From assembly GCA_030619905.1 (NCBI GenBank), contig JAUXAO010000001.1:48348-112347 (forward strand): a stretch of 64,000 nt of DNA, read 5' to 3'. Below, in pieces: positions 34,238 through 57,203 of the stretch (its first letter is position 1; each line of letters starts with the position of its first letter). A model generated the notes under the pieces. The model did no database searches. It saw nothing but the letters and a program-made list of their open reading frames with translations, and was not told the origin of the DNA. The DNA comes from a bacterium (lineage in GTDB: Bacteria; Patescibacteriota; Minisyncoccia; Minisyncoccales; CG1-02-41-26). The position numbers were made by a program, and so were the translations under genes.

Positions 34238-34271
34238 AATTCAAAATTATATTAAGATTATTATTTTATTT

Positions 34272-34481
34272 CTAATTAATATCAAAAGTGATCCTTTCTT
34301 GCTCTTTAAGCTCTCCAATTATTGCTTCCTCTATCTCGTAGAATTTTGCTTCACTTTTTAACTCTTTTTGAGCGCGAGTTATAGCTTTTTTTATATCTGA
34401 AGCCCTAACATATCCTAATACCTCATAATGTTCCTGACTCCGATAAACGACTATGTATCTCTTTAATAATGTTTTAGCCAT
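34272..34481 (-). CDS. 69-aa hypothetical protein embedded between rSAM genes
   Basis: Tightly packed (overlaps the neighbouring gene by 8 nt); no Cys or His; charged helical composition. Confidence 0.35.
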   Translation of the reverse strand: MAKTLLKRYIVVYRSQEHYEVLGYVRASDIKKAITRAQKELKSEAKFYEIEEAIIGELKEQERITFDIN

Positions 34482-35427: not shown

Positions 35428-35439
35428 CTTTTATTTTGA

Positions 35440-36348: not shown

Positions 36349-36412
36349 AGAAAATATTCAATAGCTACATACCAACAGAGATTAGATTACTTTATCAGTT
36401 AATACCCGGTAT

Positions 36413-37258: not shown

Positions 37259-37272
37259 AAAAAATGTGATGT

Positions 37273-39224: not shown

Positions 39225-39227
39225 AAA

Positions 39228-40145
39228 TTAAATTTTTGTATTTTTAGTTTCTACTGGTTTAAATTCTTCCCAGCCAAAAATTTGGGGATATTCTTTCCAT
39301 GGACCTTCACAAATTTTGAAATATTTACATTTTGAACAGTTCGGACCTTTGAGTTTCCCTTCTCTCCTTCTATATTCGCCATAATCCTCAATAGACCATT
39401 CAGCATCATAGACCGACCCATTTGGGATTCCCTTTTCAGCAATATAATCTTCATAGCCTTTCATAAAACAATAAGGAATAGCTTCAGTCATTACTCTTAC
39501 CCCTGCATCTATACCAATTTGAAGACCTTTTCTAACATAAGACATTATTTTGGATTTTCGAGGAACAATTTCATCTATTAATTTTTTATTTTCTAAAAGG
39601 ATATGATTAATGTGGATAAAAGCGAATTGGAATTGGTCAACTCCTAGACTTACCAGAAGTTTTGCAATCTGGGGGAGATATCTATAATTAGGTTTGGTAA
39701 TCACCGTATTCATGAGAATACGTTGACCTAACGATTTAAGATTCTTTATACCGGTAGTACTCTGCTTAAAACTTCCAGGAACAGTAGTTAAACTATCGTG
39801 AAGTTTAGCATTATGACCATGTAGGGCTAAAGCAAATTCGTTAGCTCCTTTTTTAATTAAATTCTCACAAAACTTTTTATAAGCAAACATCCGTCCATTG
39901 GTCTGAATCTGAATTACCTTAAAATCTAATTCCTTTGCATATTTAACAAGATCTGGTAAGTCTTTTCTAATAGTTGGTTCGCCACCGGTAAAAACTAGTG
40001 CCTCATGTTTTTTCCGGGCCTCTCTTAAAATCCTTTTAATTTCTTTAGTAGTTTTATCAGGGTATTCCTCTCTTTTATTTCCTTGGACGCAAAATCGACA
40101 ACGATTATTACATTGAAAACCTACTTTTATATCTACTCTCTGCAT
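39228..40145 (-). CDS. radical SAM protein (short family)
   Basis: CNNRCRFC; GGEPT; C-terminal CSKCKYFKICEGPWKEY. Confidence 0.8.
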   Translation of the reverse strand: MQRVDIKVGFQCNNRCRFCVQGNKREEYPDKTTKEIKRILREARKKHEALVFTGGEPTIRKDLPDLVKYAKELDFKVIQIQTNGRMFAYKKFCENLIKKGANEFALALHGHNAKLHDSLTTVPGSFKQSTTGIKNLKSLGQRILMNTVITKPNYRYLPQIAKLLVSLGVDQFQFAFIHINHILLENKKLIDEIVPRKSKIMSYVRKGLQIGIDAGVRVMTEAIPYCFMKGYEDYIAEKGIPNGSVYDAEWSIEDYGEYRRREGKLKGPNCSKCKYFKICEGPWKEYPQIFGWEEFKPVETKNTKI

Positions 40146-40154
40146 ATTTAAAAA

Positions 40155-41297
40155 TTATTTAAATAATTGCCAGCATTGAGGGTCTGGCAAAAATTGAGGA
40201 TCTTCCAAGTAAGAATCTTTCCAGTATCCATAACTTACACATTTAGCTCCTCCTTGACATTTATCAAAATAAGTACAACTTTGACAACGAGTGTTTATAT
40301 TCCTTGGATTTCTTAATTTTTTCAATTCTTCAGATTTATAGAATATTTCTTCTAAAGATTGTTTTAAAACACTACCAACATAAATTGGCAATCTCCGGCA
40401 GGGATAAACATCACCATTTGGTAAAATTGTCAAAGAAGAGTATCCAGCTACACAGGTATTTGCCTTATATCCTTCCTGGGCTAAAATTCCATCTTCGCAA
40501 CCTATGCCTACACTCAGTTTCGATTTCTGATTGATTAACTTTCTATTAGTTTTCAGAAGGGAGAGATACAATCTTTTTGTCTCTTGAGGAGAAAGGATTA
40601 ATTTCTTCATTTCTTCTCCTCTGCCAAGAGGAATGAATCTTCTTAATCCTAGACTATTTACTCCTAACTTTCTAGCCAGTTCAATTAATAAAGAAATATC
40701 TCTTAAATTCTGTTTAGTCACTGTTACTGAAATACCCGTATTAATTCTATTTTTAACTAGTAATTCTATTGCTTTTGCTATTTTTTTAAAAGTTCCTTTG
40801 CCCCGAATTTCATCATTTTTCTCTCTCATGCCTTCTAAACTTACCTGAGCATAATCAATCTTGAATCTGTTAAGTTTAATTATTTTCTTATCGTCAAGTA
40901 ATATACCATTAGTAAGGATTCCATATCTAGTTTTTTCTCTATTTTGGTAACATTTCTTCAGAAATTCAAAAAAATCATCTCTGAGCAATGGTTCGCCACC
41001 AGTAATAGAAATTCTTGATTTGTCGCAGGGAAGGTTCCATTTTTTTAGAAGTTTCATGTAATTATCAAGAATTTCAAAAAGCTTACTTAAAAAAAGCTCA
41101 TTTTTCAAAAATTTCTCATCAAAATAACAATGCTTACAGGACAAATTGCATCTTTCCGTAATATGCCATTGTAGATGGAAAGAATCTGGTTGATATTGAG
41201 ATTCAGTAAACATTTTCTTATAATAACACACTAGTCCTATTCTGAGAAATATTTTTTGGATTATACTTTCAAAATAGAAAATCCCTTGCCAAAACAA
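40155..41297 (-). CDS. radical SAM/SPASM-domain peptide-maturase-like protein
   Basis: CNLSCKHC; GGEPL; SPASM-type C-terminus (CVAGYSSLTILPNGDVYPC ... CQSCTYFDKCQGGAKC). Confidence 0.8.
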   Translation of the reverse strand: MFWQGIFYFESIIQKIFLRIGLVCYYKKMFTESQYQPDSFHLQWHITERCNLSCKHCYFDEKFLKNELFLSKLFEILDNYMKLLKKWNLPCDKSRISITGGEPLLRDDFFEFLKKCYQNREKTRYGILTNGILLDDKKIIKLNRFKIDYAQVSLEGMREKNDEIRGKGTFKKIAKAIELLVKNRINTGISVTVTKQNLRDISLLIELARKLGVNSLGLRRFIPLGRGEEMKKLILSPQETKRLYLSLLKTNRKLINQKSKLSVGIGCEDGILAQEGYKANTCVAGYSSLTILPNGDVYPCRRLPIYVGSVLKQSLEEIFYKSEELKKLRNPRNINTRCQSCTYFDKCQGGAKCVSYGYWKDSYLEDPQFLPDPQCWQLFK

Positions 41298-41311
41298 ACT
41301 GACAAGGGATT

Positions 41312-42502
41312 TTAATCACGTCCTACTATTTTTGAGAGACATCTGATTGATCCGCCAAATTTGGTAATTCCCATACCTATTTCTACTTCTTTTACTCTAA
41401 AACCTAAAGATTCGTAAATTTCTATTGCCTTCTTATCTAGTGACTCTATCCCGTATATTGGTAAATACACAACTTTTTCCTTTCCTTTTTCTTCAATTAG
41501 AACATTATTATATGTAATAAAATGAGCAAATCTCCCGTGCAAAATCTGAGTAGAATAAATAACTCCAAAGTAAGGTATTCTTATTACTCGAAATCCCTGA
41601 TTTTCAAGTTTATCTTTTGCCTTCTCTAGTGCTCCAGAGATATCTTCGGAAAGATTTAATTCAATCTGTTTTCTAAAAATCGGTGAATCAAGAATTGAAG
41701 GATCACCTGTTTTAAGCAATAAATCTACTGCTAATCTTGAATCTCCTAAAAGCAGAGTCTTCTTTCCGATTGGAGTTAAATACATATCGATATGATCAAA
41801 TGGGGCTCTATGATTCTTGTCTCCAATGATAACCACATTTTTACCAAACATTTCTTCTAATTTCTGGATGATTTCTTGTTCATCTAATTCTAATCTACTA
41901 TTTTCCTCAATCAGAGAATATCCTATGAATACATTTCTATCATTAGATACGATGTTCCCGCCATCGAAATCTAGATCGGATACAATACTTGTCATATGAG
42001 GATATGTTTCAGATAAAGCCCTTGAAACCGCTGAATACCTTTCTGATGCAGGCACTATAAGTGTAATTCCTTTATCTTTGTTTTTAACAATAACATACCC
42101 ATCTTGTCCCCAAGGAGAAAGTTTTTCCTCGCTTTCTGGAATCAGTAATGTTCTAATAGTATTGTGGATATTCCATTTGTCTTTTATTATTTCGGGCAAT
42201 CTTTCAAAATACGACTGAGATTCGGTAATTATAGTTATCTCTACATTACTATCAAGTTCTTCTAGTATCGATCGGAAGTAACTTAGTGAGACAGACCAAA
42301 AATAATTGTTTTTTGATTGTGGAATCTGAAATACAATGTGTTGAATTTTACCTTGATTGTCTGATAATATCTTCTCTGTTTCATATCTCCGAAAAATAAG
42401 GTCTGCAAATCCGGGAACGGTCTCATTCAAAACGACCAATAAGATTATCAAAAAAATCAACGAAACTACCAAAAATGATTGTCTCTTCATCTTTTTCACC
42501 AC
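41312..42502 (-). CDS. guanidino-group-modifying enzyme superfamily protein (agmatine deiminase / PAD_porph-like), membrane-anchored
   Basis: N-terminal TM helix; WGQDG, DFDGGNIVSNDRNVFIG, HIDMYL and C-terminal GGSIRCLS (catalytic Cys in a GGxIHCxT-like context). Confidence 0.55.
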   Translation of the reverse strand: MVKKMKRQSFLVVSLIFLIILLVVLNETVPGFADLIFRRYETEKILSDNQGKIQHIVFQIPQSKNNYFWSVSLSYFRSILEELDSNVEITIITESQSYFERLPEIIKDKWNIHNTIRTLLIPESEEKLSPWGQDGYVIVKNKDKGITLIVPASERYSAVSRALSETYPHMTSIVSDLDFDGGNIVSNDRNVFIGYSLIEENSRLELDEQEIIQKLEEMFGKNVVIIGDKNHRAPFDHIDMYLTPIGKKTLLLGDSRLAVDLLLKTGDPSILDSPIFRKQIELNLSEDISGALEKAKDKLENQGFRVIRIPYFGVIYSTQILHGRFAHFITYNNVLIEEKGKEKVVYLPIYGIESLDKKAIEIYESLGFRVKEVEIGMGITKFGGSIRCLSKIVGRD

Positions 42503-42669
42503 CTCTTTTATTTTTAATTTTCTGAAAATAAGAAATTCTTATATTTTCTTATTTTCCAATCTCTATTATAGCGCAAAATTAAACTGATGTCAAGATTCTA
42601 TTTTTCAATTAAAGGAATTCTTGTTTAAATCAATCTGCTGAGAAGATAATATGCTTTATTTTGATATAT

Positions 42670-43599
42670 CTATCTGCTCTGATTAAGATCCTTAATTTCG
42701 ACAATAGGGTGATAAAAATCATCTTCTGTCTTAATGGGTATCTTTTTTCTAATAGGTATAAATTCTTTACCTCCTACTAATTTTAAATAATCTTTATGAA
42801 TACCTAAACAATATTTTTTGTATAAGCATTTATTACAAGAAGGTAAAAAAGTAACCTCATCTTTACGCAGAGTTCTCCAATGATATTTCCATAAATTAAA
42901 ATCAATAGTGCATAAAGGGAAATGATATAAGCGAAGCTCTTTAAATTTTTTTTCCCATTTTTCAAACAAAGGTGGTAAATACTTTCTAATCTCTTTATAG
43001 GTAATACCCACCGTTTTAAAGTTCTCTCCGCATACCCCTTCCATCTCTTGAAAAAGGAGTACTACCCGGTCAACTGAAGGAAACTTATTTATTACTAAAT
43101 TAAGTATTTTATCTAAATATTTGTAATTTTGTCTGATAAGAATTATTCTTATTTCCAATTGGTGAGAATCGTTTTTATACTTCAAAACATTATGAATACC
43201 GGCTATTGTCTGGTTGAAGCTTCCTTTGACCCTAGTAATATTATCATGCATTCGAGCATTATAACCATGGATAGCTATTTCAAAAATAACATCATTTATA
43301 AAAAAACATTCTCTAGCGAATTTCGGATAACAAAACATCCTTCCGTTGGTGGCTACAACAACCTTCGTTTGGGGAAATTGTTTTCTGAACCATTTGAGTA
43401 ATCTTAAAAAATCGGGGTGAATAGTTGGCTCCCCTCCAGAGAGGTTAATTGTCTCTTCAATCTTCCCAAAAGATTTAATGTTCTGAATAATCTTTTCAAA
43501 CCTAAGAAGATCCGAATCTATTTCATTCTGAAAATTTGGAGAATTGGTGCACATTACGCAATTATTATTACATTTATTCCAAATCGAAATATCAGGCAT
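42670..43599 (-). CDS. radical SAM protein (short family 'MPxISIWNKC')
   Basis: CNNNCVMC; GGEPT; C-terminal CNKCLYKKYCLGIHKDYLKLVG. About 60% identical to 33299..34237. Confidence 0.8.
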   Translation of the reverse strand: MPDISIWNKCNNNCVMCTNSPNFQNEIDSDLLRFEKIIQNIKSFGKIEETINLSGGEPTIHPDFLRLLKWFRKQFPQTKVVVATNGRMFCYPKFARECFFINDVIFEIAIHGYNARMHDNITRVKGSFNQTIAGIHNVLKYKNDSHQLEIRIILIRQNYKYLDKILNLVINKFPSVDRVVLLFQEMEGVCGENFKTVGITYKEIRKYLPPLFEKWEKKFKELRLYHFPLCTIDFNLWKYHWRTLRKDEVTFLPSCNKCLYKKYCLGIHKDYLKLVGGKEFIPIRKKIPIKTEDDFYHPIVEIKDLNQSR

Positions 43600-43615
43600 G
43601 ATACAATTAAATAAT

Positions 43616-43762
43616 TTATTTTATTACTTTTAGCTCTTTATCTCCGTAATGTTTTAAATATTCCTTCCAAATTCCTTCACATTTATCGTATAATTTACAA
43701 GTTCGGCATTTTTCTGTTTTACCTTTAGCAATGATAATGAAAATCAATAATTTTTTCCATAT
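43616..43762 (-). pseudogene. remnant C-terminal fragment (about 45 aa) of an 'EGIWKEYLKHYGDKEL'-family rSAM gene
   Basis: The minus-strand translation ...AKGKTEKCRTCKLYDKCEGIWKEYLKHYGDKELKVIK* is nearly identical to the C-terminus of 45054..45995. It has no N-terminal part. Confidence 0.6.
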
Positions 43763-43765
43763 TCT

Positions 43766-44821
43766 TTAAATCCAACACATCGGGTCTGTTTCCAAATAAT
43801 CATCTCTTAAATTATGTGCCGTTCCTCTGCAACCACCACAAATATTTCGTTTTGGACATTTTCTACATTTACCCTTTAAATTATCTCTATTTCTTAATTT
43901 AAGAAAAAGTTCTGAGGTTAGCCAGAGATTTTTCAAATTATCCTTTCTCACATTCCCAACTTTAATCATTAATACAGGACAAGGAGTCACATCTCCAGTT
44001 GGAGTTATACATAAGCTCGTAACTCCTGCTCCACACCCACCATAAATACTTTTATAGGGACTCTTGGGATAATCGGGATCTAACAAACACTTTAACGGAT
44101 CACCGGTGCTAATTAACAATTTTCCCTCTAATTTTTTTTTATTTCTGTAAATCAATTTAAGTATTTTTTTGTTTTGTTCTTTAGTTAACGCTAAATAGCG
44201 ATTTTTTGCTCCTCTTCCAGTGGGAATAAATCGCTCCAAAGACAAGGCATTAACTTCTAATTTTAAAGCTAATTCAAAAAGTTTTTCTATTACAGGGCTT
44301 GTTTTTGTTAATGATGTTATAACTGAAACCATTGTAACTCTCATACCTTCTTTCTTGGCAATCTTAATTCCCTTAATTACTTTTCTAAATGTACCCTTTC
44401 CTCTTATTTCATCATTTAATTCAGCTGTGGGTCCATCAATACTGAAATGCATTTCTTCCATTCCAGCTTCTTTAAGTTTTTTTATAAGTCCCTTTGTAAC
44501 AATCGTTCCGTTAGTTGCTGTAGAAACTCGCAATCCAGCTTCAGAGGCTTTCTTTGTGTATTCTATGATGTGCTCATGCAACAAAGGTTCTCCACCTGAA
44601 AAAAAAAGCATCTTTACACCAGCTTCTATTATTTGATTAAGTACTTTTAAGCATTCTTCATGACTTAGCTCATCTCTCAGAGCTTTTCCGGAAAAAGAAC
44701 AGCATGTTTTGCACATTAGATTACATTTATGAGTAATTTCCCACACAACCATTATTAAACTATATTCCCTTTCTTTATTAACCATGTTTAAAAAAGTGTC
44801 AATTATTTTTTTACTTGCCAA
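43766..44821 (-). CDS. radical SAM/SPASM-domain protein (TTG start)
   Basis: CNLMCKTC; GGEPL; SPASM C-terminus (CGAGVTSLCITPTGDVTPC ... CRKCPKRNICGGC). Confidence 0.8.
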   Translation of the reverse strand: MASKKIIDTFLNMVNKEREYSLIMVVWEITHKCNLMCKTCCSFSGKALRDELSHEECLKVLNQIIEAGVKMLFFSGGEPLLHEHIIEYTKKASEAGLRVSTATNGTIVTKGLIKKLKEAGMEEMHFSIDGPTAELNDEIRGKGTFRKVIKGIKIAKKEGMRVTMVSVITSLTKTSPVIEKLFELALKLEVNALSLERFIPTGRGAKNRYLALTKEQNKKILKLIYRNKKKLEGKLLISTGDPLKCLLDPDYPKSPYKSIYGGCGAGVTSLCITPTGDVTPCPVLMIKVGNVRKDNLKNLWLTSELFLKLRNRDNLKGKCRKCPKRNICGGCRGTAHNLRDDYLETDPMCWI

Positions 44822-45053
44822 TTATTACTACAAATTTGCCTTTGATTTTACTACTAATTTTATCTTTCTAAATTTTTCCAATTACTCTCTTAATAGTGCA
44901 TTGGCAAATTATTTTAAATTTTCTAATCAATTTACGGTTGGACAATATAATTCTGGACATTATCTGGATCTAACTTAGAAGCTTTACTAAAATATTCTTC
45001 AACTTTTTCTAAATTTCCAAATAGAAATGTTAGGCATGATACAATTAAACAAT

Positions 45054-45995
45054 TCATTTTATTACCTTTAACTCTTTATCTCCGTAATGTTTTAAATATT
45101 CCTTCCAAATTCCTTCACATTTATCATATAATTTACAGTCCTGACATTTCTCCGTTTTGCTTTTAGCTAAATTTATTCTTGATTTTTCCACATTTAAATT
45201 AGTAAAATCTGGAGCAATATGTTCGGTACGGAAAATTTTCAATTCTTCTAATTCGCTTATCTGGTCTAAATAATCTCTAAAATAGCAAAGGGGAACATAT
45301 CGAATATGCCAGTGAGAAATATTATTTTTCCTCCCGATATCTAAACATTTGTGAGCATAGGGAGCTACTTCCGAAATTCGTGGGACAATTTTATCAAAGT
45401 TATCAAAGGCCGCTCCACAAGTTGGATCAACAAAAATAAACTCAGAATCTTTAAATCCTAAATTTAAAAGAAACTCTCCAATTTGAGGAAGATGTCGATA
45501 ATTTTGTTTAACTATAACAGTGTCTGAACCGAGATAAATATTTTTCAGTCTTAGTGCTTTTATATATTTTTTTACGTTTTCTAAACCTTTCTTTAATTTT
45601 TCGAAACTGCCAAGAACTTGTGTCAAAGAATCATGGAGTTCGGCTGTTTCACCATGAATAGAGAAAATAATGTTGTTCAGACCTGCTTTTAATATTTCTT
45701 TGGTAAAAGTTTCATAATAAAACATCATCCCATTAGTTGGAATAGTCATAACTAAAAACCCTAAGTTCCTAGCAAATTTTACTAAATCAATAATATCAGA
45801 CCTAATAGTCATTTCTCCTCCATTCAATTCTATGTAATCGGACCCTTTTTTTCTTGCTTTTATCATCTCTCTTTTTATTTCGTCACTAGTCTTGTCTGGG
45901 ATATCTCTCTTATTGGAATTAAGACAAAATAAACAGTGACAGTTACACCTATATCCAGCAATGATTACTGTTCTTTTTATTTTTTTTCTCTGCAT
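45054..45995 (-). CDS. radical SAM protein (short family '...EGIWKEYLKHYGDKEL')
   Basis: CNCHCLFC; GGEMT; C-terminal CQDCKLYDKCEGIWKEY. Confidence 0.8.
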   Translation of the reverse strand: MQRKKIKRTVIIAGYRCNCHCLFCLNSNKRDIPDKTSDEIKREMIKARKKGSDYIELNGGEMTIRSDIIDLVKFARNLGFLVMTIPTNGMMFYYETFTKEILKAGLNNIIFSIHGETAELHDSLTQVLGSFEKLKKGLENVKKYIKALRLKNIYLGSDTVIVKQNYRHLPQIGEFLLNLGFKDSEFIFVDPTCGAAFDNFDKIVPRISEVAPYAHKCLDIGRKNNISHWHIRYVPLCYFRDYLDQISELEELKIFRTEHIAPDFTNLNVEKSRINLAKSKTEKCQDCKLYDKCEGIWKEYLKHYGDKELKVIK

Positions 45996-48820: not shown

Positions 48821-50182
48821 TTATTTAATAGAGCAAAGTTCCTTTTCTACTTTATAAAGTAGATACTCCTTGCTACATTTTTGTTTTGTACTACATCTCT
48901 CCCGATTAACTTTGAACATATCACCTGTCAAAGCGATCGTTTTACTATGACATCCTCCTGCACAATTCCATTTTAAGAAACAATTTTGACAGGATTGCAT
49001 ATTGCAAACTATTCTTTTCTGTAAATAATTAATCCTTTTTTGGTTAAAAACAATTTTCTTTCTTTTTTTATCAAACCTTCCATATATTAATTCTTTCGGA
49101 GCCGTTCTTCCAAGATAGGCTTCATAACAACAGCTGATATAACTATCAGGCGTAAGAAATATATTAGGAATGGAAGCACCACAATGAGCACATGATCTTC
49201 TGTAAACTGGTAAAAAAGCACTTATTAATTTAATATTTAATTCATCCGCTAATTTTTTTGCTTCCAAATAATTCTCTATGTATAAAGCTAGGTCAGGCGC
49301 TTTGGAAAAATTATCTTTTGGCTTAAAGCTCCTTCCTGCCTCAAATATTGGCTCAAAATGAACTGATTTTATGCCTAATTTATGAAAATATTTAATTATT
49401 TCTCTCTGTTTTGTAACGGAAAAAGCAGAAATTGTAGATCTTACTGAAAAAGGATAGTTATTTTTTACCAGGAATTCAATAGTTTTCTCGACAAAAGGAC
49501 TACTTTTATCTCCATCCTTTAATGGCCTCTGTCTATCCTGAATACGAGGTGGCCCATCTATAGATACAGAAAGTTGAAAATTATTCTTTATTAAATAAAC
49601 AAGGGTTGTTTTAGGAAGTTTACCGTTTATTTGGGTACCAAAATTTAATTTATCTATCTTCTTCTCGGCATATTTAATTATTTTCTTTATTAAACCAATT
49701 GCTAAAGTGGGTTCTCCTCCTCCATGAAAGTAAATATTCAAAGATTTTTTATTTCTCTCCGAAATATAATCTAAAACTGTTTTAACAAAACTGAAGTCAA
49801 TTGTTTCCTTTATATCTCCTCCTTGAGCAAAACAATACTTACACTTTAGATTACAGTCAGTAGTCAAAAGGATGAAGAGGTCACCATAATATCGAAACTT
49901 AGTATAAGGATTACAGTAAGAACGAAAAATATTACTATCTTTATTTAACAACAACTTAGCTTGAGAAAATGCTTTTTGTTTATCTTTCGGTATCTTCTTA
50001 GAATTAAGCAGATTTTTTGCCTCTTTATCTAATAAAAAAACTCTGTTTAGCAAAGAACTATAAAGAACATAATCATTTTTTATTTTACCAATATAATGTA
50101 GGTCTGGTATAATTTTTAAATCATCACCGAAACTTATTTTTGCATACGAATTATCTAAAAAATCAATAAAGTTTATTCTCAT
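48821..50182 (-). CDS. radical SAM/SPASM protein directly upstream-adjacent to the HxS-repeat genes (HxsB/HxsC-like candidate)
   Basis: CNLKCKYCFAQGGDIKE; GGGEPT; SPASM (CAHCGASIPNIFLTPDSYISCC ... CQNCFLKWNCAGGCH). Confidence 0.8.
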   Translation of the reverse strand: MRINFIDFLDNSYAKISFGDDLKIIPDLHYIGKIKNDYVLYSSLLNRVFLLDKEAKNLLNSKKIPKDKQKAFSQAKLLLNKDSNIFRSYCNPYTKFRYYGDLFILLTTDCNLKCKYCFAQGGDIKETIDFSFVKTVLDYISERNKKSLNIYFHGGGEPTLAIGLIKKIIKYAEKKIDKLNFGTQINGKLPKTTLVYLIKNNFQLSVSIDGPPRIQDRQRPLKDGDKSSPFVEKTIEFLVKNNYPFSVRSTISAFSVTKQREIIKYFHKLGIKSVHFEPIFEAGRSFKPKDNFSKAPDLALYIENYLEAKKLADELNIKLISAFLPVYRRSCAHCGASIPNIFLTPDSYISCCYEAYLGRTAPKELIYGRFDKKRKKIVFNQKRINYLQKRIVCNMQSCQNCFLKWNCAGGCHSKTIALTGDMFKVNRERCSTKQKCSKEYLLYKVEKELCSIK

Positions 50183-50205: not shown

Positions 50206-50745
50206 TTATATTTCTGCCCCAACTCCCGCACAACAAGGACAAGCACTACCATGGGAAGAATGATTAGAATGGGAGTCGTGAGAACTATGGGAACCATGAG
50301 AACCATGAGAAGAATGAGAAGAATGGGAGGCATGAGAACAATGAGATTGATGAGAACTATGAGAACTGTGAGATCCATGAGATCCATGAGATCCATGGGA
50401 AGAATGGGAAGAATGGGAACTGTGCGAGCCATGCGAGCCGTGGGAAACATGGGATCCATGAGAGCCATGCGAGCCATGAGAGACATGAGAAGAATGGGAG
50501 CCATGCGAGCCATGGGAAACATGAGAAGAATGGGATGTATGGGAGGCATGGGAAGAATGGGAAGAGTGGTCACATTTCCACTCTGCCTGAACATCCTTAG
50601 CGATCATAGACCCTCCTACAGCTGCACCTAACACAAGAAGCATTGTTCCTGCTTTAACAATGTCTTTTTTATTGACATTTCCTTCTTCAGAGGTAAGAAA
50701 GGCTTTAATATTCTTTTTAAATTTTGGCAATAATTTGTTTTCCAT
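50206..50745 (-). CDS. His-Xaa-Ser repeat precursor-like protein (HxsA-like), copy 1: leader followed by about 35 consecutive HxS triplets and a Cys-rich tail
   Basis: MENKLLPKFKKNIKAFLTSEEGNVNKKDIVKAGTMLLVLGAAVGGSMIAKDVQAEWKCD, then HSS HSS HAS HTS HSS HVS HGS ... HGS, then ACPCCAGVGAEI. The leader is shared with copy 2. Confidence 0.8.
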   Translation of the reverse strand: MENKLLPKFKKNIKAFLTSEEGNVNKKDIVKAGTMLLVLGAAVGGSMIAKDVQAEWKCDHSSHSSHASHTSHSSHVSHGSHGSHSSHVSHGSHGSHGSHVSHGSHGSHSSHSSHSSHGSHGSHGSHSSHSSHQSHCSHASHSSHSSHGSHGSHSSHDSHSNHSSHGSACPCCAGVGAEI

Positions 50746-50770: not shown

Positions 50771-51166
50771 TTAACACCAACCACCCTGAGCATGAGAACT
50801 ATGAGAACCGTGTGAGGCATGAGAACAATGGGAACTATGGGAACGATGGCAAGAACTATGAGATCCATGGGAAGAATGGGAAGAATGGGAACTGTGCGAG
50901 CCATGCGAGCCATGAGAGACATGAGAAGAATGGGAGCCATGCGAGCCATGAGAGACATGAGAAGAATGGGAAGAATGGGAACCATGGGAAGAATGTTCAC
51001 ACTCAGGCCACTGGGCTTGCACTTCACGAGCAATCATAGACCCTCCTACAGCTGCACCTAACACAAGAAGCATTGTTCCTGCTTTAACAATGTCTTTTTT
51101 ATTGACATTTCCTTCTTCAGAGGTAAGAAAGGCTTTAATATTCTTTTTAAATTTTGGTAGCTTCAT
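50771..51166 (-). CDS. His-Xaa-Ser repeat precursor-like protein (HxsA-like), copy 2: same leader followed by about 22 HxS triplets and a Cys/Trp tail
   Basis: MKLPKFKKNIKAFLTSEEGNVNKKDIVKAGTMLLVLGAAVGGSMIAREVQAQWPECE, then HSS HGS HSS HSS HVS ..., then AQGGWC. Confidence 0.8.
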   Translation of the reverse strand: MKLPKFKKNIKAFLTSEEGNVNKKDIVKAGTMLLVLGAAVGGSMIAREVQAQWPECEHSSHGSHSSHSSHVSHGSHGSHSSHVSHGSHGSHSSHSSHSSHGSHSSCHRSHSSHCSHASHGSHSSHAQGGWC

Positions 51167-51630
51167 TCTTGTTCACTTACCATTTTAGTTATTCTAATAG
51201 CTGTAAATTCATTAAGTTCATTGATTCCATCACGAGTTGACTCAATTGTCACTACTACAACATCATCGTCTACGCCTATTTCAGAAAACTCACAGGGATT
51301 TTTTTGTTTGTCATCTACGTAGTAAACTTCACACTCTGTATTGTTTGTAAGTTTGATAGTCTTTTCCATTGTTTCTTCCTGGGCATTTTCAATTAGAAAG
51401 GTTCTTGCTTCTATTTTAAAAGTCATTTCTTCAGAATCGATTGCCTTAACTATCCCCTCTATAAGATTATTTGGATATTCTTCTTCCAAAAGTTCTCTGT
51501 CTTCCTCTTCAGTAACAGGAGGCTGATAGGTCAATGCCAGAAAACCGATCAGAGCAACAATAATTACTCCTATTAAAATAAATAAATTCCTTTTATTTTT
51601 TTTCATAATTTTCATAATTTCAGTTTTCAT
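51163..51630 (-). CDS. cluster-specific membrane-anchored protein (paralog of 56841..57203)
   Basis: N-terminal TM helix. The YPNNLIEGI and NEFTAIRITKM motifs are shared with 56841..57203 (YPPNLIEGK, SKFTATKISKF). Confidence 0.45.
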   Translation of the reverse strand: MKTEIMKIMKKNKRNLFILIGVIIVALIGFLALTYQPPVTEEEDRELLEEEYPNNLIEGIVKAIDSEEMTFKIEARTFLIENAQEETMEKTIKLTNNTECEVYYVDDKQKNPCEFSEIGVDDDVVVVTIESTRDGINELNEFTAIRITKMVSEQE

Positions 51631-51719: not shown

Positions 51720-52802
51720 CTAAAAGCAAATCTCTTCCTCTATTCTTTGAATATAATGGTTAAATAAGTTGTTACTTAAAGCATTAAGTTTAATTTTCTT
51801 GGAGGCTTTTAAACAAAGATTACGGCATATTCCATATACTTTCTCAGCTTTTTTATCAGCATAAGGATAATCAGAAGAATAATTTAATTGGCACATCTGA
51901 CAATTATGATTTTTAAAATTATATTTGCACTTTTTAAAACTTCCAAAAAATCCGGAATTAACATTGCCAATAATATATTTCTCTTTATCTGGAGAGTTTA
52001 ACAAAAAAGGGGAAAAGGCCATTATGCCTGAGGGATAAACTTCCAGGTTATACCAGAAAGGACATTCGATCCTAAGCGATTGACTGATTTTCTGATACTT
52101 AATTTCCCAATTAACCGGATTTAGAAATATAAAGTTCTCTTTTTGAATATTAATGAGAATAAAATCTATAATTTTATTGAAACTCGAAATAAATTTCTTC
52201 TGAGCCTCTTTTGACCATTCTTCGTACTGCTGGATTATTTCAAAACTCATATGATTAAAGCCGAGTTTTAATAGATGTTTAAAATTCTTTTCCATCCTTA
52301 TTACCGTAGAAGGAAATAAACAGAAACCAACGCCTAAATTCTTTCTGGGAATTTTTTCAAAAATCATTGGTAGTTTTTTTGAAATTATTTCATAAGTACC
52401 TTCGTTTTTCTCCAGATTTCTGAATTTATCCTGGTCAGACCTTCCTCCCACCAAGCTGATAATTAATTTTATGTCATGTTTTTCTAGAAAATCTAAATGT
52501 TTTTTTTCGAGCAAAACAGCGTTCGTACAAACTGTTGTGGTCAAATTCTTTTTCAACTTTTTAGCTTGAGATATCGCATAAGGTACCATTTCCTTAATTA
52601 ACTTAAAATTAAGTAAAGGTTCACCGCCATAAATTGATAAAAGTTTATCTTCCCCCCGCGATTTTAACAACAAATCAATACTATTTTTGGCAGTAGTAAG
52701 GTCCATGTATTCATTAGTCTTTTTTACAAAACAGTAATCACAGTTAAGATTACATTTTGTAGTTATGGCTAATTTTATTCTGTTTATTCGTTTTTTTATC
52801 AT
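51720..52802 (-). CDS. radical SAM protein with Cys-rich C-terminal (twitch/SPASM-like) region
   Basis: CNLNCDYC; GGEPL; C-terminal CPFWYN ... CQMCQLNYS ... CRNLC. Confidence 0.75.
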   Translation of the reverse strand: MIKKRINRIKLAITTKCNLNCDYCFVKKTNEYMDLTTAKNSIDLLLKSRGEDKLLSIYGGEPLLNFKLIKEMVPYAISQAKKLKKNLTTTVCTNAVLLEKKHLDFLEKHDIKLIISLVGGRSDQDKFRNLEKNEGTYEIISKKLPMIFEKIPRKNLGVGFCLFPSTVIRMEKNFKHLLKLGFNHMSFEIIQQYEEWSKEAQKKFISSFNKIIDFILINIQKENFIFLNPVNWEIKYQKISQSLRIECPFWYNLEVYPSGIMAFSPFLLNSPDKEKYIIGNVNSGFFGSFKKCKYNFKNHNCQMCQLNYSSDYPYADKKAEKVYGICRNLCLKASKKIKLNALSNNLFNHYIQRIEEEICF

Positions 52803-52803: not shown

Positions 52804-53664
52804 TTATCTAAAATAAACCTCCAATTGTTTATTTTTAATAGCTATGAAGCTAACTCTAAAGTTTTTAACATGAGTTTTAATTTGTTCTAAAAAAGATTTA
52901 TGGGAGCTGAAACAAGACATTTTTGAAAACTGTTTGAAATCTAATCCTTTACAGCGAAAATATATGTCTTTTGAAAAAGGTTTATTATTTCTAAATCTAG
53001 TTAGTAAACCAATTCTTTTTATCGGCTTCAACTTATTAAGTTGTTGGAATACATTTTTCTCTTCCTTTCTTAAAATTTTAGAAGATGCTTTTATCGCCTG
53101 ATAAATTTTTAATGAACACTCACCATTTGGATAAAAATCGAAAATAATATTTTCTATATTAGTAAAATTTTGGTAAAGTGACTCCCATCTCTTTATTCCC
53201 AAAAATTTGCCTATAGTGGGTAGTAATTTAGTACTAACAGGATTTAAACCGATGCTAATTTTATCGAATTGGTTGCTAAAAGAATTAAAATCAACGTAAA
53301 ATACGATTACGTCATTTTTTCTTCCATGGGATAATGGAATAGATAAGATAAAATCTAAGATTTTTCGGTTAAACTTGAATTTAAAATTATCACTAATTTT
53401 TTTAAAAATATTTAATAGAATATCGCCTTTTATAAAATCTTGACATTTTTTTCGTCCAGAAAGCTTTGAATAATGAAAACAATAGGTAGCCTTAACCACT
53501 TTAAATTTTTCCATAGTGTTAAAAGAACTTTCAATATGATATCTTACCTTAGATTTTCTTAGATTATCGCCTAAATCAACTATCTTAAAAAATAACTTCT
53601 GGGTCTTTTTCGGGACTTTTATTAAAAATTTACTCGCCCATTTTTTATATTTATTTCTAGTCAT
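52804..53664 (-). CDS. hypothetical protein (no rSAM motif) inside the Hxs-like core
   Basis: 286 aa, basic, no recognisable motifs; packed at 2-nt spacing between rSAM genes. Confidence 0.4.
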   Translation of the reverse strand: MTRNKYKKWASKFLIKVPKKTQKLFFKIVDLGDNLRKSKVRYHIESSFNTMEKFKVVKATYCFHYSKLSGRKKCQDFIKGDILLNIFKKISDNFKFKFNRKILDFILSIPLSHGRKNDVIVFYVDFNSFSNQFDKISIGLNPVSTKLLPTIGKFLGIKRWESLYQNFTNIENIIFDFYPNGECSLKIYQAIKASSKILRKEEKNVFQQLNKLKPIKRIGLLTRFRNNKPFSKDIYFRCKGLDFKQFSKMSCFSSHKSFLEQIKTHVKNFRVSFIAIKNKQLEVYFR

Positions 53665-53680
53665 AATGGTCTACTTTTAG

Positions 53681-54787
53681 TCATAATGGTCTACTTTTCC
53701 ATTTTAAGATATTCTTTATTTTTAGAAAAGAAGAAATATAAATTTTTGAAATATTACAAAAGGTTTTAAAATATTTTTTAAAATCTTTCTCATTCTCAAT
53801 GCACCAGAGATATAAACCTATAGGACAAAAACAGTAATTTTCTAAAGAACACTTCAGACAACTATTTTGAGTTGATTCAACTATTTCTCTTTTTGCCTTT
53901 TTTAATAGCTCTAATCTTTTTACATAATTAACTCCTTTTTCTCCATTGCCAATTATGTATTTTTTTCTTCTGTTATCAAAGAAAGAAAATATTTTGTCAC
54001 AAAGATAAAAGTTCCCATCTGGACCTAATATCAGTTTTTGGCAGCAGAAATTATCACTATCTTTGTTCAACATCCTATTTATAAAAAGAATTTCGAGAGA
54101 AGAATCATAATTAGAATTCAAACTGCTATAAAATTCAGCAAATATATCAAATTCTTTTTTTAAAACATTAAGATGCTTCTTTGACCATAATCTATATATT
54201 TCTGGATAAAAATCTAGCTGGGAAAAACCATTCTCAACAAAAAACTTAATATTTTTGTTAAAATATTCTACTGTTTCCGGAGTAAAAACCGAACAAATCT
54301 TAATCTTTTTTTTATCCAAATCCTTGATATTACCCCAAGTTGTCTTAAAAACAGAAGATTTTCCATCTTTAAACACTCTATTTATATCATTTATATTTTT
54401 TCTACCATCTAGGCTCACTGAAAGAACAATATTATTTTTCTTTAAAAAGTCATACTTTTTTTTATTAAGTAAAGTTCCATTGGTAGAAACTATTATAATA
54501 GATTCCTTCCCTTTTTGGTTTTTCCTAACCGATTCTATTAATTTTTTTAGAGAAGACCAATATAACAAAGGTTCTCCTCCGGTAAAACTTATAACAGGAT
54601 TTTCTGAAGGATTTCTCAAAAAGAAATTAATTCCTTTTTTTATTAAAGGAATATTTAAAGGGATTTTTCTCAGGTTTTCTTTATCAATAAAACAATAGCT
54701 GCAATCAAGATTGCAGCTCCCACCAAGAAAAATAGAAAGAGAATGATATTTCATAAATAATACTAATGTTATCTTCTGCTGGTCCAT
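53681..54787 (-). CDS. radical SAM/SPASM-like protein (HxsC-like candidate)
   Basis: CNLDCSYC; GGEPL; C-terminal CCQKLILGPDGNFYLC ... CLKCSLENYCFC. Confidence 0.75.
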   Translation of the reverse strand: MDQQKITLVLFMKYHSLSIFLGGSCNLDCSYCFIDKENLRKIPLNIPLIKKGINFFLRNPSENPVISFTGGEPLLYWSSLKKLIESVRKNQKGKESIIIVSTNGTLLNKKKYDFLKKNNIVLSVSLDGRKNINDINRVFKDGKSSVFKTTWGNIKDLDKKKIKICSVFTPETVEYFNKNIKFFVENGFSQLDFYPEIYRLWSKKHLNVLKKEFDIFAEFYSSLNSNYDSSLEILFINRMLNKDSDNFCCQKLILGPDGNFYLCDKIFSFFDNRRKKYIIGNGEKGVNYVKRLELLKKAKREIVESTQNSCLKCSLENYCFCPIGLYLWCIENEKDFKKYFKTFCNISKIYISSFLKIKNILKWKSRPL

Positions 54788-56214
54788 TTCTTAAGCACCT
54801 TTAAACTCTTGGGTTCTTCGAATTTCTGGAATAGATAATCTAAGATACCTCTGTTTACCTGACAGCGAAAATTATTTGGAGTCTGGGAAAAAATGTTATC
54901 ACCTTCAGAATAATTAAAGACAGGACAAACTCCACAATAAGGAAGGTAAACGCACTCGCTGCATCCGCTAAGCCCTTCTAATGTGGAAGCAAGACATAAA
55001 GATTTAGTTACTGGTGAAGAAATAATTTCCTCATAACTATTTTTGTAGACATTACCAATTTTAAATGTCTCATCACCCATCTGACCGAGCATTCTTCCCT
55101 CATCGCACGTGTAAATGTCTCCGTTATAATGATAAGCTATCTGGCCGATACCTGCTCCACAAGGGGAGCGAAGATCTAAAAAATTAGGATCATTATCAGT
55201 AAATACTTTTTGAATAATTATAGCTGCTGTTCTTTCTCTAATCCTTACTCCTTTGATATTTAATTTTATAATATAGTCTAACGCCTTCTTGTAAAATTCA
55301 AGAAATTCCTCTGCTGTATATCCTATCACCTTTTGAAGACTCTTGGCCATTCCAAAAGGATTAAGGGGTCTTAGATGAATATCTCTCGCGCCTAATTTCA
55401 CATATTCATCGACAATCTCTTTCCAGAAAGGAAGAGAATATCGGGTTGTGGTTACTAAAGCGTTTACTCGATATCCCAAACCCCTATATTTATCTTTTAC
55501 CTTTTTAATTCTTTGTAATGTAATAGAATGACCATTCTTTTTATTAATCATTGGCCTATTCTTATTATGAAGCTTTTCTGGTCCGTCCAAGGAACTGCAC
55601 ATAGAAATCTTTTTGTTATAGAGCCAATTTAATTTCTTGTCATCCAAGAGTGTCAGGGTGGAAACTAAACTAAACCTTAATTTTTTCTTTGCTTTCTTAT
55701 TTTTCTCAAGCGCATAATCTACAATAAATTTAACTATCTCAAAATTTGCCAATGGTTCTCCTCCCTGAAATTCAATAATAATCTCAGAGGAAGTAGTTTG
55801 GAAAATCATATCTACTACCTTTTTGGCCGTCTTTTTCGTCATATCTAAATCTTTCCTAGCCATACTTTTCGAGGAAGCATGACAATATATACAAGCATGG
55901 TCGCAACGAAGAGTAATAACAATAATATGCAAACTTGGTCCTTGGGTTAAATATTTATGACGCTGAGCATATATTTGAGTCATCTGCATCTGACAATTTT
56001 GACAATTCCACGATTCAGAAGTAAAATGTTTTTTATCTAATTCCTTGTAGATAATACTGTTTCTTTTCAATTTACCTTGCGTGAAATCTTTAAATTCCTT
56101 TTCCTTAAGGAATCTAAAATCACCAAGATCATTGGTTAAAAGATATTTATTTCCTAATTTCCTAAAGCGAAGAAGTCCTGTTGAATTAATTTTTGATTTA
56201 TTATGATTATGCAT
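54769..56214 (-). CDS. radical SAM/SPASM protein with an N-terminal extension (about 100 aa) (HxsB-like candidate)
   Basis: CDHACIYC; GGEPL; SPASM (CGAGIGQIAYHYNGDIYTC ... CSECVYLPYCGVC). Adjacent to the HxsD-like gene. Confidence 0.8.
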   Translation of the reverse strand: MHNHNKSKINSTGLLRFRKLGNKYLLTNDLGDFRFLKEKEFKDFTQGKLKRNSIIYKELDKKHFTSESWNCQNCQMQMTQIYAQRHKYLTQGPSLHIIVITLRCDHACIYCHASSKSMARKDLDMTKKTAKKVVDMIFQTTSSEIIIEFQGGEPLANFEIVKFIVDYALEKNKKAKKKLRFSLVSTLTLLDDKKLNWLYNKKISMCSSLDGPEKLHNKNRPMINKKNGHSITLQRIKKVKDKYRGLGYRVNALVTTTRYSLPFWKEIVDEYVKLGARDIHLRPLNPFGMAKSLQKVIGYTAEEFLEFYKKALDYIIKLNIKGVRIRERTAAIIIQKVFTDNDPNFLDLRSPCGAGIGQIAYHYNGDIYTCDEGRMLGQMGDETFKIGNVYKNSYEEIISSPVTKSLCLASTLEGLSGCSECVYLPYCGVCPVFNYSEGDNIFSQTPNNFRCQVNRGILDYLFQKFEEPKSLKVLKKWTSRR

Positions 56215-56410
56215 TTTTAATTAATCCTAAAACATAATTACAAAATTCTTCTTTTATCACATTTCTTGATTCTGGATCTATATTTTTCAAATCAACTTTG
56301 ATATTTTTTTTACCCACTTCTATATCAAAATCAGCCAATCCTTTATAGTCATGGATGGCTTTTTCAATAGATTTCAGATTGTAAAAATTCCTATTGAAGT
56401 TAATAGTCAT
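56207..56410 (-). CDS. 67-aa hypothetical protein between the HxsD-like gene and the rSAM gene
   Basis: Overlaps both neighbours by 4-8 nt (translational coupling); no motifs. Confidence 0.3.
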   Translation of the reverse strand: MTINFNRNFYNLKSIEKAIHDYKGLADFDIEVGKKNIKVDLKNIDPESRNVIKEEFCNYVLGLIKNA

Positions 56411-56844
56411 GATTTTTTCTTCTCTCCATATCTTTCTTCCCAGGGTACAGCAATCCCAAGAGGATCTTCTTCAAATACTTCTTCTACTCCTTTTTCTCTC
56501 GTCTCTTGGGGAGAAAGAGCAGAAAATAAAGCTCTTTCAACAATAGTATCGCGAATCTTTCCTGTATTCTTGGCAATAGACAGTCTTAAAACATAATTCA
56601 GAAGTTCATTCTTAAATTCCCCGACTAATATTTCCAGTTCCTTGGAATTTAATTCCTTTTTTCCTTTTATGGAAACTTTTATTTCTTTTTTAGGATTCCC
56701 ATTTAAAAATAAATAAGCCCGATCAATAAAAACATAACAGGCTCCATAAACAGCTTCTAAAGGATACACGTCAGGATTAAGAGAGATTATAATCTCATTC
56801 TTTTTTTTAGTAATTTTTATACTTTTTTTATTTTTTGATTTCAT
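56407..56844 (-). CDS. HxsD-like protein (His-Xaa-Ser system accessory protein candidate)
   Basis: 145 aa. It contains ELLNYVLRL, resembling the LLNDYxLRE signature after which the HxsD family model is named. Located first in the operon. Confidence 0.45.
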   Translation of the reverse strand: MKSKNKKSIKITKKKNEIIISLNPDVYPLEAVYGACYVFIDRAYLFLNGNPKKEIKVSIKGKKELNSKELEILVGEFKNELLNYVLRLSIAKNTGKIRDTIVERALFSALSPQETREKGVEEVFEEDPLGIAVPWEERYGEKKKS

Positions 56845-57203
56845 TTACTTTTCTGATAATTAACGAATTTACTTATTTTAGTGGCTGTAAATTTACTGAT
56901 CTCATCTATTTTTTCATAGGTTGGTTCTTTGGTACTGATTACTATACAATCTCCTTTTCTAAATCTCGAAAACATTATGAGAGATTCTTTCTTTGTGGCC
57001 ATATCATATAATACAAGTTTAGTTTTTGGGGTAAGTTTAATTGTTTTTTTCATAAAAGGAGCCTTGGCCGTGCTAATTTTTGAAGTATCTGCATTCAAAA
57101 CCAAACTCTTTGGAATTGAGTAGTCAATTTTTAAAATCTTGCCTTCTATTAGATTAGGAGGATATTCTAACTCAGGCTGTATTTGTTTCTTCTTTTTTCG
57201 CAT
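56841..57203 (-). CDS. cluster-specific protein, paralog of 51163..51630 (lacks the TM anchor)
   Basis: Shares the YPPNLIEGK and SKFTATKISKF motifs with 51163..51630. Confidence 0.4.
   Translation of the reverse strand: MRKKKKQIQPELEYPPNLIEGKILKIDYSIPKSLVLNADTSKISTAKAPFMKKTIKLTPKTKLVLYDMATKKESLIMFSRFRKGDCIVISTKEPTYEKIDEISKFTATKISKFVNYQKSK

Follow-up and report, generated by a model that had tools for sequence, protein, structure and literature searches.

HxsD and HxsB paired with a SPASM-type radical SAM enzyme of a separate family: a probable Patescibacteria-specific variant of the Hxs system

Overview of the gene core

We analyzed a 64,000-nucleotide (nt) stretch of contig JAUXAO010000001.1 (assembly GCA_030619905.1) from a patescibacterial genome, hereafter the window, in which the interval 53681-56844 probably represents the enzyme core of an Hxs system in a variant form specific to Patescibacteria and not the canonical HxsD-B-C-A arrangement. 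The interval contains four open reading frames (ORFs), all on the minus strand. An earlier note on this DNA had placed them at 56407-56844 (145 amino acids, aa), 56207-56410 (67 aa), 54769-56214 (481 aa), and 53681-54787 (368 aa) and had described them as coupled; both points were confirmed, with successive overlaps of 4, 8, and 19 nt. The products are HxsD, a truncated HxsD paralog (HxsD'), HxsB, and a second radical S-adenosylmethionine (SAM) enzyme of the SPASM type, which we designate HxsX. Two genes encoding His-Xaa-Ser (HxS)-repeat precursors of the HxsA4 type lie 2.5 kb downstream of this enzyme core.

Canonical HXS systems consist of HxsD (TIGR03976), HxsB (TIGR03978), HxsC (TIGR03977), and HxsA (TIGR03979), and their function has been demonstrated in E. 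coli MEM (Li et al., Nat Commun 2026; PMC13128918). The four-gene composition is fixed, the gene arrangement HxsD-HxsB-HxsC-HxsA is found in 99.6% of the described systems, and 99.7% of these systems belong to the Pseudomonadota (PMC13128918). In E. coli, HxsB and HxsC are needed for the processing of HxsA, which receives a +8 Da modification on an SHRSS repeat, and HxsC and HxsD form a complex (PMC13128918). Canonical HxsA combines a signal peptide with about five HxS repeats and a peptidoglycan-binding domain, and antiphage defence is the sole experimentally defined role of any Hxs system (PMC13128918). Among the hallmarks of such a system, HxsD and HxsB were present in the window, and an HxsC following HxsB, an HxsA effector, and the D-B-C-A order were not found in it.

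A tblastn search of plasmids with the 481-aa protein yielded 541 records, with annotated hxsB genes under the best matches. Five annotated canonical loci from four phyla (Aeromonas, Nostoc, Leptospira, Methylobacter, and Sphingobium) served as references and as the source of our own hidden Markov models (HMMs). The Aeromonas reference is Aeromonas salmonicida plasmid NC_009349 (L006).

HxsD and HxsB

The hxsD gene (56407..56844, minus strand) encodes a long Patescibacteria form of the protein, of 145 aa, which scored 63.9 bits against the NCBIfam model TIGR03976 (cutoff 50; E-value 1.3e-17), with residues 24-109 aligned to positions 3-87 of 90. It was also recovered by an HMM built from four canonical HxsD sequences (E-value 7.3e-14), and an identical protein bears a precomputed match to the Pfam family PF27806 (HxsD). 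We identified 183 homologs, nearly all of 125-180 aa and all with PF27806, several of which have been named HxsD by JGI or NCBI in metagenome-assembled genomes (MAGs) of Parcubacteria or Falkowbacteria. The core of the protein has a beta-beta-alpha-beta-beta topology, followed by a long helix bearing ELLNYVLRL, and its AlphaFold2 model had a predicted local distance difference test (pLDDT) value of 79, exceeding 86 for residues 10-110.

The likeness of ELLNYVLRL to the HxsD signature LLNDYxLRE, pointed out in the earlier note with a register that was off by one, proved to be real. The two align without gaps, with Leu, Tyr, Leu, and Arg kept, Asp replaced by Asn, and the final Glu replaced by Leu. 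In E. coli HxsD, mutating the Asp and Arg of LLNDYxLRE lowers HxsA processing (PMC13128918). The Aeromonas HxsD reads ALIDHELRV at this position. Across 42 relatives of the 145-aa protein, the residues Y27, Y44, F77, N79, E80, R87, D127, I131, and W135 were invariant; F77, N79, E80, and R87 fall within GEFKNELLNYVLR, R87 being the Arg of ELLNYVLRL, and D127, I131, and W135 sit in a DPLGIAVPWEE segment of the conserved C-terminal tail DPLGIAVPWEERYG. The 96-aa HxsD of Aeromonas lacks this segment, whereas the Leptospira HxsD has a similar DPVGF.

The gene at 54769..56214 (minus strand) encodes HxsB, a radical SAM/SPASM maturase of 481 aa. The earlier note had called it an HxsB-like SPASM radical SAM protein with an N-terminal extension, and it scored 535.9 bits against TIGR03978 (cutoff 370), with residues 15-478 aligned to positions 4-466 of 466; the next NCBIfam family reached only 131.9 bits. 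Pfam Radical_SAM (98-242) and SPASM (352-421) domains follow an N-terminal extension of approximately 95 aa. The Aeromonas HxsB matched the protein over its full length at 40% identity (blastp, E-value 3e-120), and our own HxsB HMM gave it 479 bits, compared with 69 bits for the next protein in the window.

Since HxsD and HxsB both exceed the NCBI curated equivalog cutoffs, the motif similarity reflects true homology. The earlier note had allowed that it might be coincidental, with no significant match to the HxsB, HxsC, or HxsD models; such matches were found for HxsD and HxsB, but the assignment of the 368-aa protein to HxsC failed.

The truncated HxsD paralog

The 67-aa ORF (56207..56410, minus strand), which had been described as coupled but without its relationship to HxsD being recognized, scored 70.3 bits against NF038315 (HxsD_rel, cutoff 41), with residues 3-65 aligned to positions 1-62 of 62 in this NCBIfam model. 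Our own HxsD HMM matched it at an E-value of 3.8e-5. In a profile-profile comparison (hhalign), residues 2-62 of the 67-aa family aligned to residues 19-83 of HxsD (probability 89.6%, E-value 1.9e-6); this alignment indicates that the protein is, by sequence, a truncated HxsD paralog ending right after the conserved EFxN. HxsD' retains the beta-beta-alpha-beta-beta core and the EFxN helix start; the tail and the LR portion of the motif are missing. It was located between HxsD and HxsB in all of the nine related Patescibacteria loci examined.

HxsX, a SPASM-type enzyme in the position of HxsC

The fourth gene (53681..54787, minus strand) had been taken to encode an HxsC-like enzyme. Its start codon is ambiguous, being either M1 (54787, 368 aa) or M12 (54754, 357 aa), and close relatives are called at the equivalent of M12. 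HxsC identity was ruled out: TIGR03977 was not among the 25 best NCBIfam matches of HxsX, so that any score would be below approximately 50 bits (cutoff 267.9), a blastp comparison with the Aeromonas HxsC gave an E-value of 1.4, and an HMM of five canonical HxsC sequences from four phyla had no match at E-values up to 10.

The best NCBIfam match of HxsX was PapB (147.5 bits, cutoff 340), and it remained below the cutoffs of CcpM (101.8 vs. 500), anSME (90.7 vs. 349), and SCIFF (89.3 vs. 425), with 97 bits for HxsB; thus, HxsX reaches the curated NCBIfam cutoff of no named maturase family. Pfam Radical_SAM (52.7 bits) and Fer4_12 domains were detected, and the Pfam SPASM HMM had no match at E-values up to 0.01. 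The family is rare, with 36 homologs (E-value up to 1e-20) among 5.8 billion clustered proteins. All of them carry generic radical SAM Pfam domains only, and the few named ones come from Patescibacteria. In an alignment of 26 members, the CX3CX2C motif (C25, C29, and C32) was invariant and C249, C263, C319, and C321 were at least 90% conserved. The C-terminal cysteines present in HxsX are C249, C263, C310, C313, C319, C321, and C344, and the CxxC pair (C310 and C313) has been lost in one subclade of the family.

The other part of the earlier description, a SPASM-like radical SAM protein, was supported by profile and structural comparisons. The HxsX family profile matched CteB (5wgg) at 3.8e-39, with profile positions 4-351 aligned to CteB residues 93-441, and also matched anSME; at the residue level, the alignment passes through the SPASM cysteines of CteB. 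The AlphaFold2 model (pLDDT 87.3; predicted template modelling score, pTM, 0.88) retrieved CteB first in a Foldseek search (TM score 0.73, E-value 5e-20), followed by anSME (TM score 0.68), ChlB, and SuiB. HxsX has no N-terminal recognition domain: because the profile alignment begins at CteB residue 93, HxsX lacks the N-terminal recognition element (RRE) of CteB. As judged from profiles and the predicted structure, HxsX is a SPASM peptide-maturase-type enzyme with a CteB/anSME-like fold that forms a separate rare family.

HxsX lies directly after HxsB in all seven related loci that carry it, which is the slot of HxsC in canonical systems, where hxsC immediately follows hxsB in five of the five reference loci. 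No NCBIfam model captures the HxsX family, and the Patescibacteria arrangement was not found in the literature searched.

A perfect 20-nt tandem duplication (AAAGTAGACCATTATGACTA, twice) was observed exactly where the 368-aa gene stops and the following 286-aa gene starts (53659-53698, minus strand). A single copy of the unit would yield an ATGA stop/start overlap, and the duplication could be a rearrangement scar or an assembly artefact. Distant relatives carry an HxsA4 precursor gene at the position matching this junction.

HxS-repeat precursors

Two HxsA4-type precursor genes were identified on the minus strand, encoding proteins of 131 aa (50771..51166; NF038313, 71 bits) and 179 aa (50206..50745; NF038313, 96.4 bits), both above the cutoff of 55. 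Against HxsA3 (NF038309, cutoff 65), they scored 65.4 and 70.8 bits, respectively. Precursor 1 consists of the leader LPKFKKNIKAFLTSEEG, a hydrophobic segment, 22 HxS triplets, and a C-terminal GGWC; precursor 2 has a leader as in precursor 1, 35 HxS triplets (33 in one unbroken run), and the Cys-rich C-terminus CPCCAGVGAEI. The variable repeat position is mostly Ser or Gly in both, and the repeat-coding DNA has a 9-nt periodicity. Neither an HxsA (TIGR03979) match at E-values up to 0.01 nor a Pfam domain was found in the repeat proteins, hence no peptidoglycan-binding domain was detected. Therefore, the four-component HxsA/B/C/D system that the earlier note had assembled from the interval and these genes does not hold in that form, as the repeat proteins are HxsA4 and not HxsA and the 368-aa protein is not HxsC.

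In six precursors compared across loci, the leader residues P4, K7, K11, F13, L14, E17, E18, G19, K24, and K28 were invariant, and five of the six end in GGWC. In one related contig (L003, 10458-11072), the HxsA4 gene holds a run of N and the leader-end sequence (AREAQAQWP.CEH) occurs twice, which suggests two tandem precursor genes collapsed or gapped in the assembly.

The first HxsA4 gene is overlapped by the gene immediately upstream (51163..51630, minus strand), which encodes a 155-aa protein with an N-terminal membrane segment; the same placement was found in L003. A gap of 89 nt precedes the 155-aa and HxsA4 genes and contains an AT-rich tandem repeat and a promoter-like site (51632-51697, minus strand; TTGACA, 18 nt, TAAAAT; 11 of 12 consensus matches), a predicted internal promoter that may serve the precursor genes.

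Conservation of the module in related genomes

Scanning one genome per species for HxsB revealed three Patescibacteria MAG contigs (L001, L002, and L003) with HxsB proteins 73-76% identical to that of the window, all of which share the order clpP, 120-aa protein, HxsD, HxsD', HxsB, and 368-aa protein. In a 35.7-kb JGI contig (L018), the order was identical through the 286-aa protein and a 360-aa radical SAM enzyme. The cluster is syntenic beside the clpP/tig/pnp housekeeping genes in five genomes and stands in other contexts in distant relatives, one of which, also from the Patescibacteria, has its cluster next to an IS110 transposase.

The distant loci L007, L008, and L010, with 49-53% identity in HxsB and 40-41% in the 368-aa family, keep HxsD-HxsD'-HxsB-HxsX, and a gene for an HxsA4-type precursor of 80-88 aa ending in SRGGWC comes directly after HxsX. 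As these loci retain the four genes with HxsA4 next, the ancestral module is, as reconstructed from gene order, D-D'-B-X-A4, positionally parallel to the canonical D-B-C-A. Thus, the earlier proposal of a core made of D, B, a second radical SAM enzyme, and A was right in position, with the second enzyme in the HxsC slot and the precursor next in distant relatives, but wrong in the terms canonical and HxsC-like.

Another Hxs-related architecture was observed on a large genome (L011, 10001-12731 of a 2.69-Mb contig), with a 216-aa HxsD homolog, a 314-aa protein of no assigned family, and an HxsC4-like radical SAM enzyme and without HxsB.

Comparison with known systems

Like canonical HXS systems, the window has HxsD and HxsB orthologs above the cutoffs with HxsD upstream of HxsB, a second gene for a radical SAM enzyme that is coupled to hxsB at its 3' end, and a candidate substrate with tandem HxS triplets behind a predicted N-terminal export signal. 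It differs in the predicted CteB/anSME-like SPASM nature of the second enzyme, the extra truncated HxsD paralog, the 145-aa HxsD with its DPLGIAVPWEE tail compared with 96 aa in Aeromonas, the displacement of the precursor genes, the patescibacterial host, and an operon containing 15 radical SAM enzymes. In addition, E. coli HxsA has 5-7 repeats with Arg at the variable position, whereas the precursors of the window have 22 and 35 repeats with Ser or Gly, terminal Cys motifs, and no detected Pfam domain.

NCBIfam includes the variant families HxsA3 (NF038309), HxsA4 (NF038313), HxsD_rel (NF038315), and HxsC4 (NF038332), of which the 67-aa protein belongs to HxsD_rel and the repeat proteins to HxsA4. 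These assignments, together with the 'downstream radical SAM' name given to a relative of the 309-aa enzyme described below, indicate that curators have already modelled parts of the variant.

HxsX shares its core and SPASM architecture with CteB, the SCIFF thioether maturase, and with anSME (4k36-4k39). However, it differs from CteB in lacking the 92-residue N-terminal RRE, in an identity of approximately 22%, and in its His/Ser-repeat context as opposed to Cys-rich SCIFF peptides. A cluster for a RiPP, a peptide made by the ribosome and modified post-translationally, in Mucilaginibacter lappiensis combines a His-Xaa-Ser-motif precursor with radical SAM enzymes unrelated to HxsB/HxsC (J Biol Chem 2022, PMC9062424). 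This cluster is a precedent for pairing an HxS-motif precursor with non-HxsC radical SAM enzymes, but it lacks HxsB and HxsD, whereas the window has both and only the HxsC slot is filled by another family.

HxsD and HxsB are ordinary members that a standard pipeline can name, and HxsA4 and HxsD_rel already have NCBIfam models. The HxsX family, its constant pairing with HxsB, and the D-D'-B-X-A4 architecture in Patescibacteria were found neither in the models nor in the literature searched. Hxs-type systems reach beyond the Pseudomonadota into the ultra-small Patescibacteria, with approximately 26 kb devoted to them in the window. For annotation, the locus illustrates that adjacency to hxsB is insufficient for calling HxsC.

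Proposed function and alternative explanations

The two HxsA4-type proteins are the likely substrates of the enzyme core. By analogy with the E. coli HXS system, HxsB and HxsX would use 5'-deoxyadenosyl radicals and auxiliary Fe-S clusters for covalent modification of the His/Ser residues of the repeats, presumably in the cytoplasm, ahead of precursor processing and export to the cell envelope, and the hydrophobic segment of the HxsA4 proteins may act as an export or anchor segment. HxsD and HxsD' may be small alpha+beta adaptors that bind a radical SAM partner, as in the HxsD-HxsC complex of E. coli. Downstream, the remaining radical SAM enzymes, the eight HxsC-like paralogs among them, would add further tailoring steps.

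More tentatively, and at somewhat less than even confidence, we propose that HxsC has been replaced in Patescibacteria by the non-orthologous HxsX together with a duplicated, truncated HxsD, and that, with 22-35 repeats and a 15-enzyme assembly line, the system produces a new class of heavily modified or cross-linked poly-His/Ser envelope polymer with a chemistry unlike the +8 Da mark. In the E. coli study, the only one on Hxs chemistry, the enzymes could not be reconstituted in vitro (PMC13128918). A variant that keeps HxsB and HxsD and swaps HxsC separates the contributions of HxsB/HxsD from those of HxsC, and reconstitution may be easier with the short 80-88-aa precursors of L007, L008, and L010 than with E. 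coli HxsA, which is prone to forming inclusion bodies.

Several observations weigh against a Patescibacteria-specific core acting on HxsA4. The link between HxsX and HxsA4 is one of gene order, and three genes lie between them in the window. HxsC, the known partner of HxsD, is represented only by divergent paralogs that score below threshold, lie 10 kb or more away, and are without the canonical N-terminal ~110 residues. At the variable position, the HxsA4 proteins mostly have Ser or Gly in place of the basic residues proposed for DNA binding in E. coli, and no Pfam domain was detected in them. Moreover, one Parcubacteria locus (L009) has D-D'-B only, so that HxsX is not obligatory for every Patescibacteria HxsB.

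As for the physiological role, the product may, as in E. coli, form a barrier to phage DNA in the envelope, or it may be a poly-His/Ser peptide that binds metal or acts at the cell surface. Because the precursors differ from E. coli HxsA in repeat number, Ser/Gly content, Cys motifs, and the absence of any detected Pfam domain, the DNA-trapping defence mechanism is not simply transferable. A metal-binding or surface role is a serious alternative: the exported, modified poly-(His-Xaa-Ser) peptide would serve in metal binding/acquisition or in cell-surface/host interaction of an episymbiotic Patescibacteria cell and not in antiphage defence, a view that we hold to be a fair way short of probable but well worth weighing. 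The 22 and 35 His residues at a fixed three-residue spacing with neutral Ser/Gly between them, the terminal Cys motifs, and the precursors' lack of a detected Pfam domain are in line with it, as are the location beside clpP/tig/pnp in five genomes, not in a mobile defence island, and the PADLOC 2023 search, which gave no defence matches in the cluster beyond a generic pVip radical SAM similarity. However, antiphage activity is the only experimentally defined Hxs role (PMC13128918), the varied contexts of the distant clusters, including the one beside IS110, are compatible with mobility, and no metal transporter or regulator was identified within the region under study.

We consider it unlikely that HxsX and the 360-aa enzyme do not act on HxS repeats at all, with HxsB alone or together with the HxsC-like paralogs maturing HxsA4. 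HxsX would then modify another operon product, for example the 120/155-aa pair or the 286-aa protein, or make a small-molecule cofactor, and its adjacency to HxsB would reflect operon packing. In the window, HxsX is indeed followed by the 286-aa protein and not by a precursor, the 120/155-aa paralogs flank the core and the precursors, SPASM enzymes such as anSME, matched here through PDB 4k36-4k39, act on folded proteins, and L009 has D-D'-B without HxsX. On the other side, three independent divergent loci have the HxsA4 gene immediately behind HxsX, HxsB and HxsX stay neighbours in seven of seven related loci down to 40% identity, and the 120-aa protein, absent from L007, L008, and L010, cannot be a conserved substrate.

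Finally, a canonical four-component system, in which the 368-aa protein would be HxsC and the other radical SAM enzymes add-ons, is highly improbable: HxsD and HxsB above their cutoffs, the 368-aa gene overlapping hxsB in the position of hxsC, and the HxS-repeat genes nearby would fit it, but the 368-aa protein has no specific HxsC similarity and a CteB/anSME-type SPASM fold and profile, the repeat proteins are HxsA4 without a detected Pfam domain and not HxsA, and an extra HxsD paralog is present.

Radical SAM enzymes downstream of the core

The cluster was found to contain 15 Pfam Radical_SAM proteins (33299-56214) and not the 13 counted previously (two in the core and 11 others). They comprise HxsB, two distant HxsB-like proteins (453 and 620 aa), the SPASM-class enzymes of 368 and 360 aa, two AhbD/SbtM-like enzymes, and eight HxsC/HxsC4-like enzymes. 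The 360-aa enzyme (51720..52802, minus strand; Pfam Radical_SAM; PapB 138 bits, below the cutoff) is a distant paralog of HxsX (29% identity, E-value 1e-20), and both lack an N-terminal recognition domain; it is kept in L001-L003, L007, L008, L010, and L018. The 453-aa HxsB-like paralog (48821..50182, minus strand), encoded directly after the precursor genes, has an N-terminal extension and a SPASM-class core with Pfam Radical_SAM, and scored 100 bits against TIGR03978 (residues 33-444 to positions 8-450 of 466), below the cutoff. The N-terminal extension of HxsB is shared by both the 453- and the 620-aa paralog.

The closest HxsC relative in the window is a 309-aa protein (42670..43599, minus strand), with 184.6 bits against TIGR03977 (cutoff 267.9). 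The Aeromonas HxsC matched it by blastp at 1e-29 (residues 116-400 to 9-302) and our own HxsC HMM at 1.7e-44, and it lacks the N-terminal domain of approximately 110 aa of canonical HxsC. Its family is widespread in Patescibacteria, and since one member has been named by NCBI 'His-Xaa-Ser repeat-associated downstream radical SAM protein', curators have already tied enzymes of this family to HxS repeats. A second HxsC-like enzyme, of 312 aa (33299..34237, minus strand), scored 165.3 bits against the same model and cutoff (own HxsC HMM 1e-37; Aeromonas HxsC blastp 8e-26).

Six further HxsC/HxsC4-like enzymes were identified on the minus strand by HMMs and Pfam (45054-45995, 39228-40145, 38253-39224, 37273-38361, 36413-37258, and 34474-35427). 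With 114-184 bits against HxsC4 (NF038332, cutoff 500), 79-122 bits against TIGR03977, and E-values of 3.8e-31 to 1.6e-15 with our own HxsC HMM, they are relatives of HxsC4 and not members. TIGR03977 was the best or second-best match for eight other proteins of the operon, and our own HxsC HMM matched eight downstream radical SAM enzymes (1.7e-44 to 1.6e-15) and, weakly, the two AhbD/SbtM-like enzymes. All eight HxsC-like paralogs lie 10-23 kb downstream, are below the curated cutoffs, and lack the first ~110 residues of canonical HxsC.

Within 34474..45995, the HxsC-like genes are interspersed with the two AhbD/SbtM-like SPASM enzymes, a PAD_porph-like protein, and a DUF483 protein. The operon members without a radical SAM domain include this PAD_porph-like protein (41312-42502; peptidyl-arginine/agmatine deiminase fold), which directly follows the best HxsC-like gene, the DUF483 protein (35440-36348), a short SBP_bac_3 fragment (48273-48818), and an Ig_Rha78A_N surface protein (30985-32025); proteins of the Ig_Rha78A_N type are also found flanking hxsD in L007 and L009. 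The C-terminal stretch of a 43-aa ORF (43616-43747, minus strand), approximately 29 residues long, exactly matches the C-terminal end of the HxsC4-like protein encoded by 45054-45995. This ORF resembles a duplicated piece of a gene and points to recent recombination between paralogs. Additionally, a trio at 32095-34481 (minus strand) consists of a 69-72-aa protein with SQEHYEVLGYVRA, an HxsC-like radical SAM enzyme, and a polytopic membrane protein, and also occurs in a groundwater Patescibacteria contig (L012, 7745-10108). The HxsC-like enzyme may have the 69-72-aa protein with SQEHYEVLGYVRA as its partner or substrate.

Operon start and neighbouring genes

The gene order in the window is 120-aa protein, HxsD, HxsD', HxsB, HxsX, 286-aa protein, 360-aa radical SAM enzyme, 155-aa protein, and two HxsA4 precursors. 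HxsD had been placed at the head of the operon; however, the gene for the 120-aa protein (56841..57203, minus strand) shares 4 nt with the start of hxsD and is separated from clpP by 23 nt, and no terminator-like site was found in this 23-nt gap. Therefore, the 145-aa gene is not the operon head, and the 120-aa gene is the true first gene after clpP. It is kept between clpP and hxsD in L001, L002, L003, and L018.

The 120-aa protein had no match in Pfam or NCBIfam and is a paralog of the membrane-anchored 155-aa protein (38% identity, E-value 5e-15); of this pair, the 120-aa protein precedes HxsD and the 155-aa protein precedes HxsA4. The window's 120-aa copy lacks an N-terminal membrane segment that both the 155-aa paralog and the 168-aa orthologs of L001 and L003 possess.

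The 286-aa protein (52804..53664, minus strand), whose family is unassigned, is conserved in these clusters, with homologs in L003 (39% identity), L008 (42%), and L018, and gave no match in Pfam, NCBIfam, or PADLOC. Within 53681-56844, the ORFs on the plus strand are antisense to the four genes and without support, and an Rfam search identified no RNA family there. In the first 29 kb of the window, 15 tRNA genes were observed in several small clusters (3923-28872).

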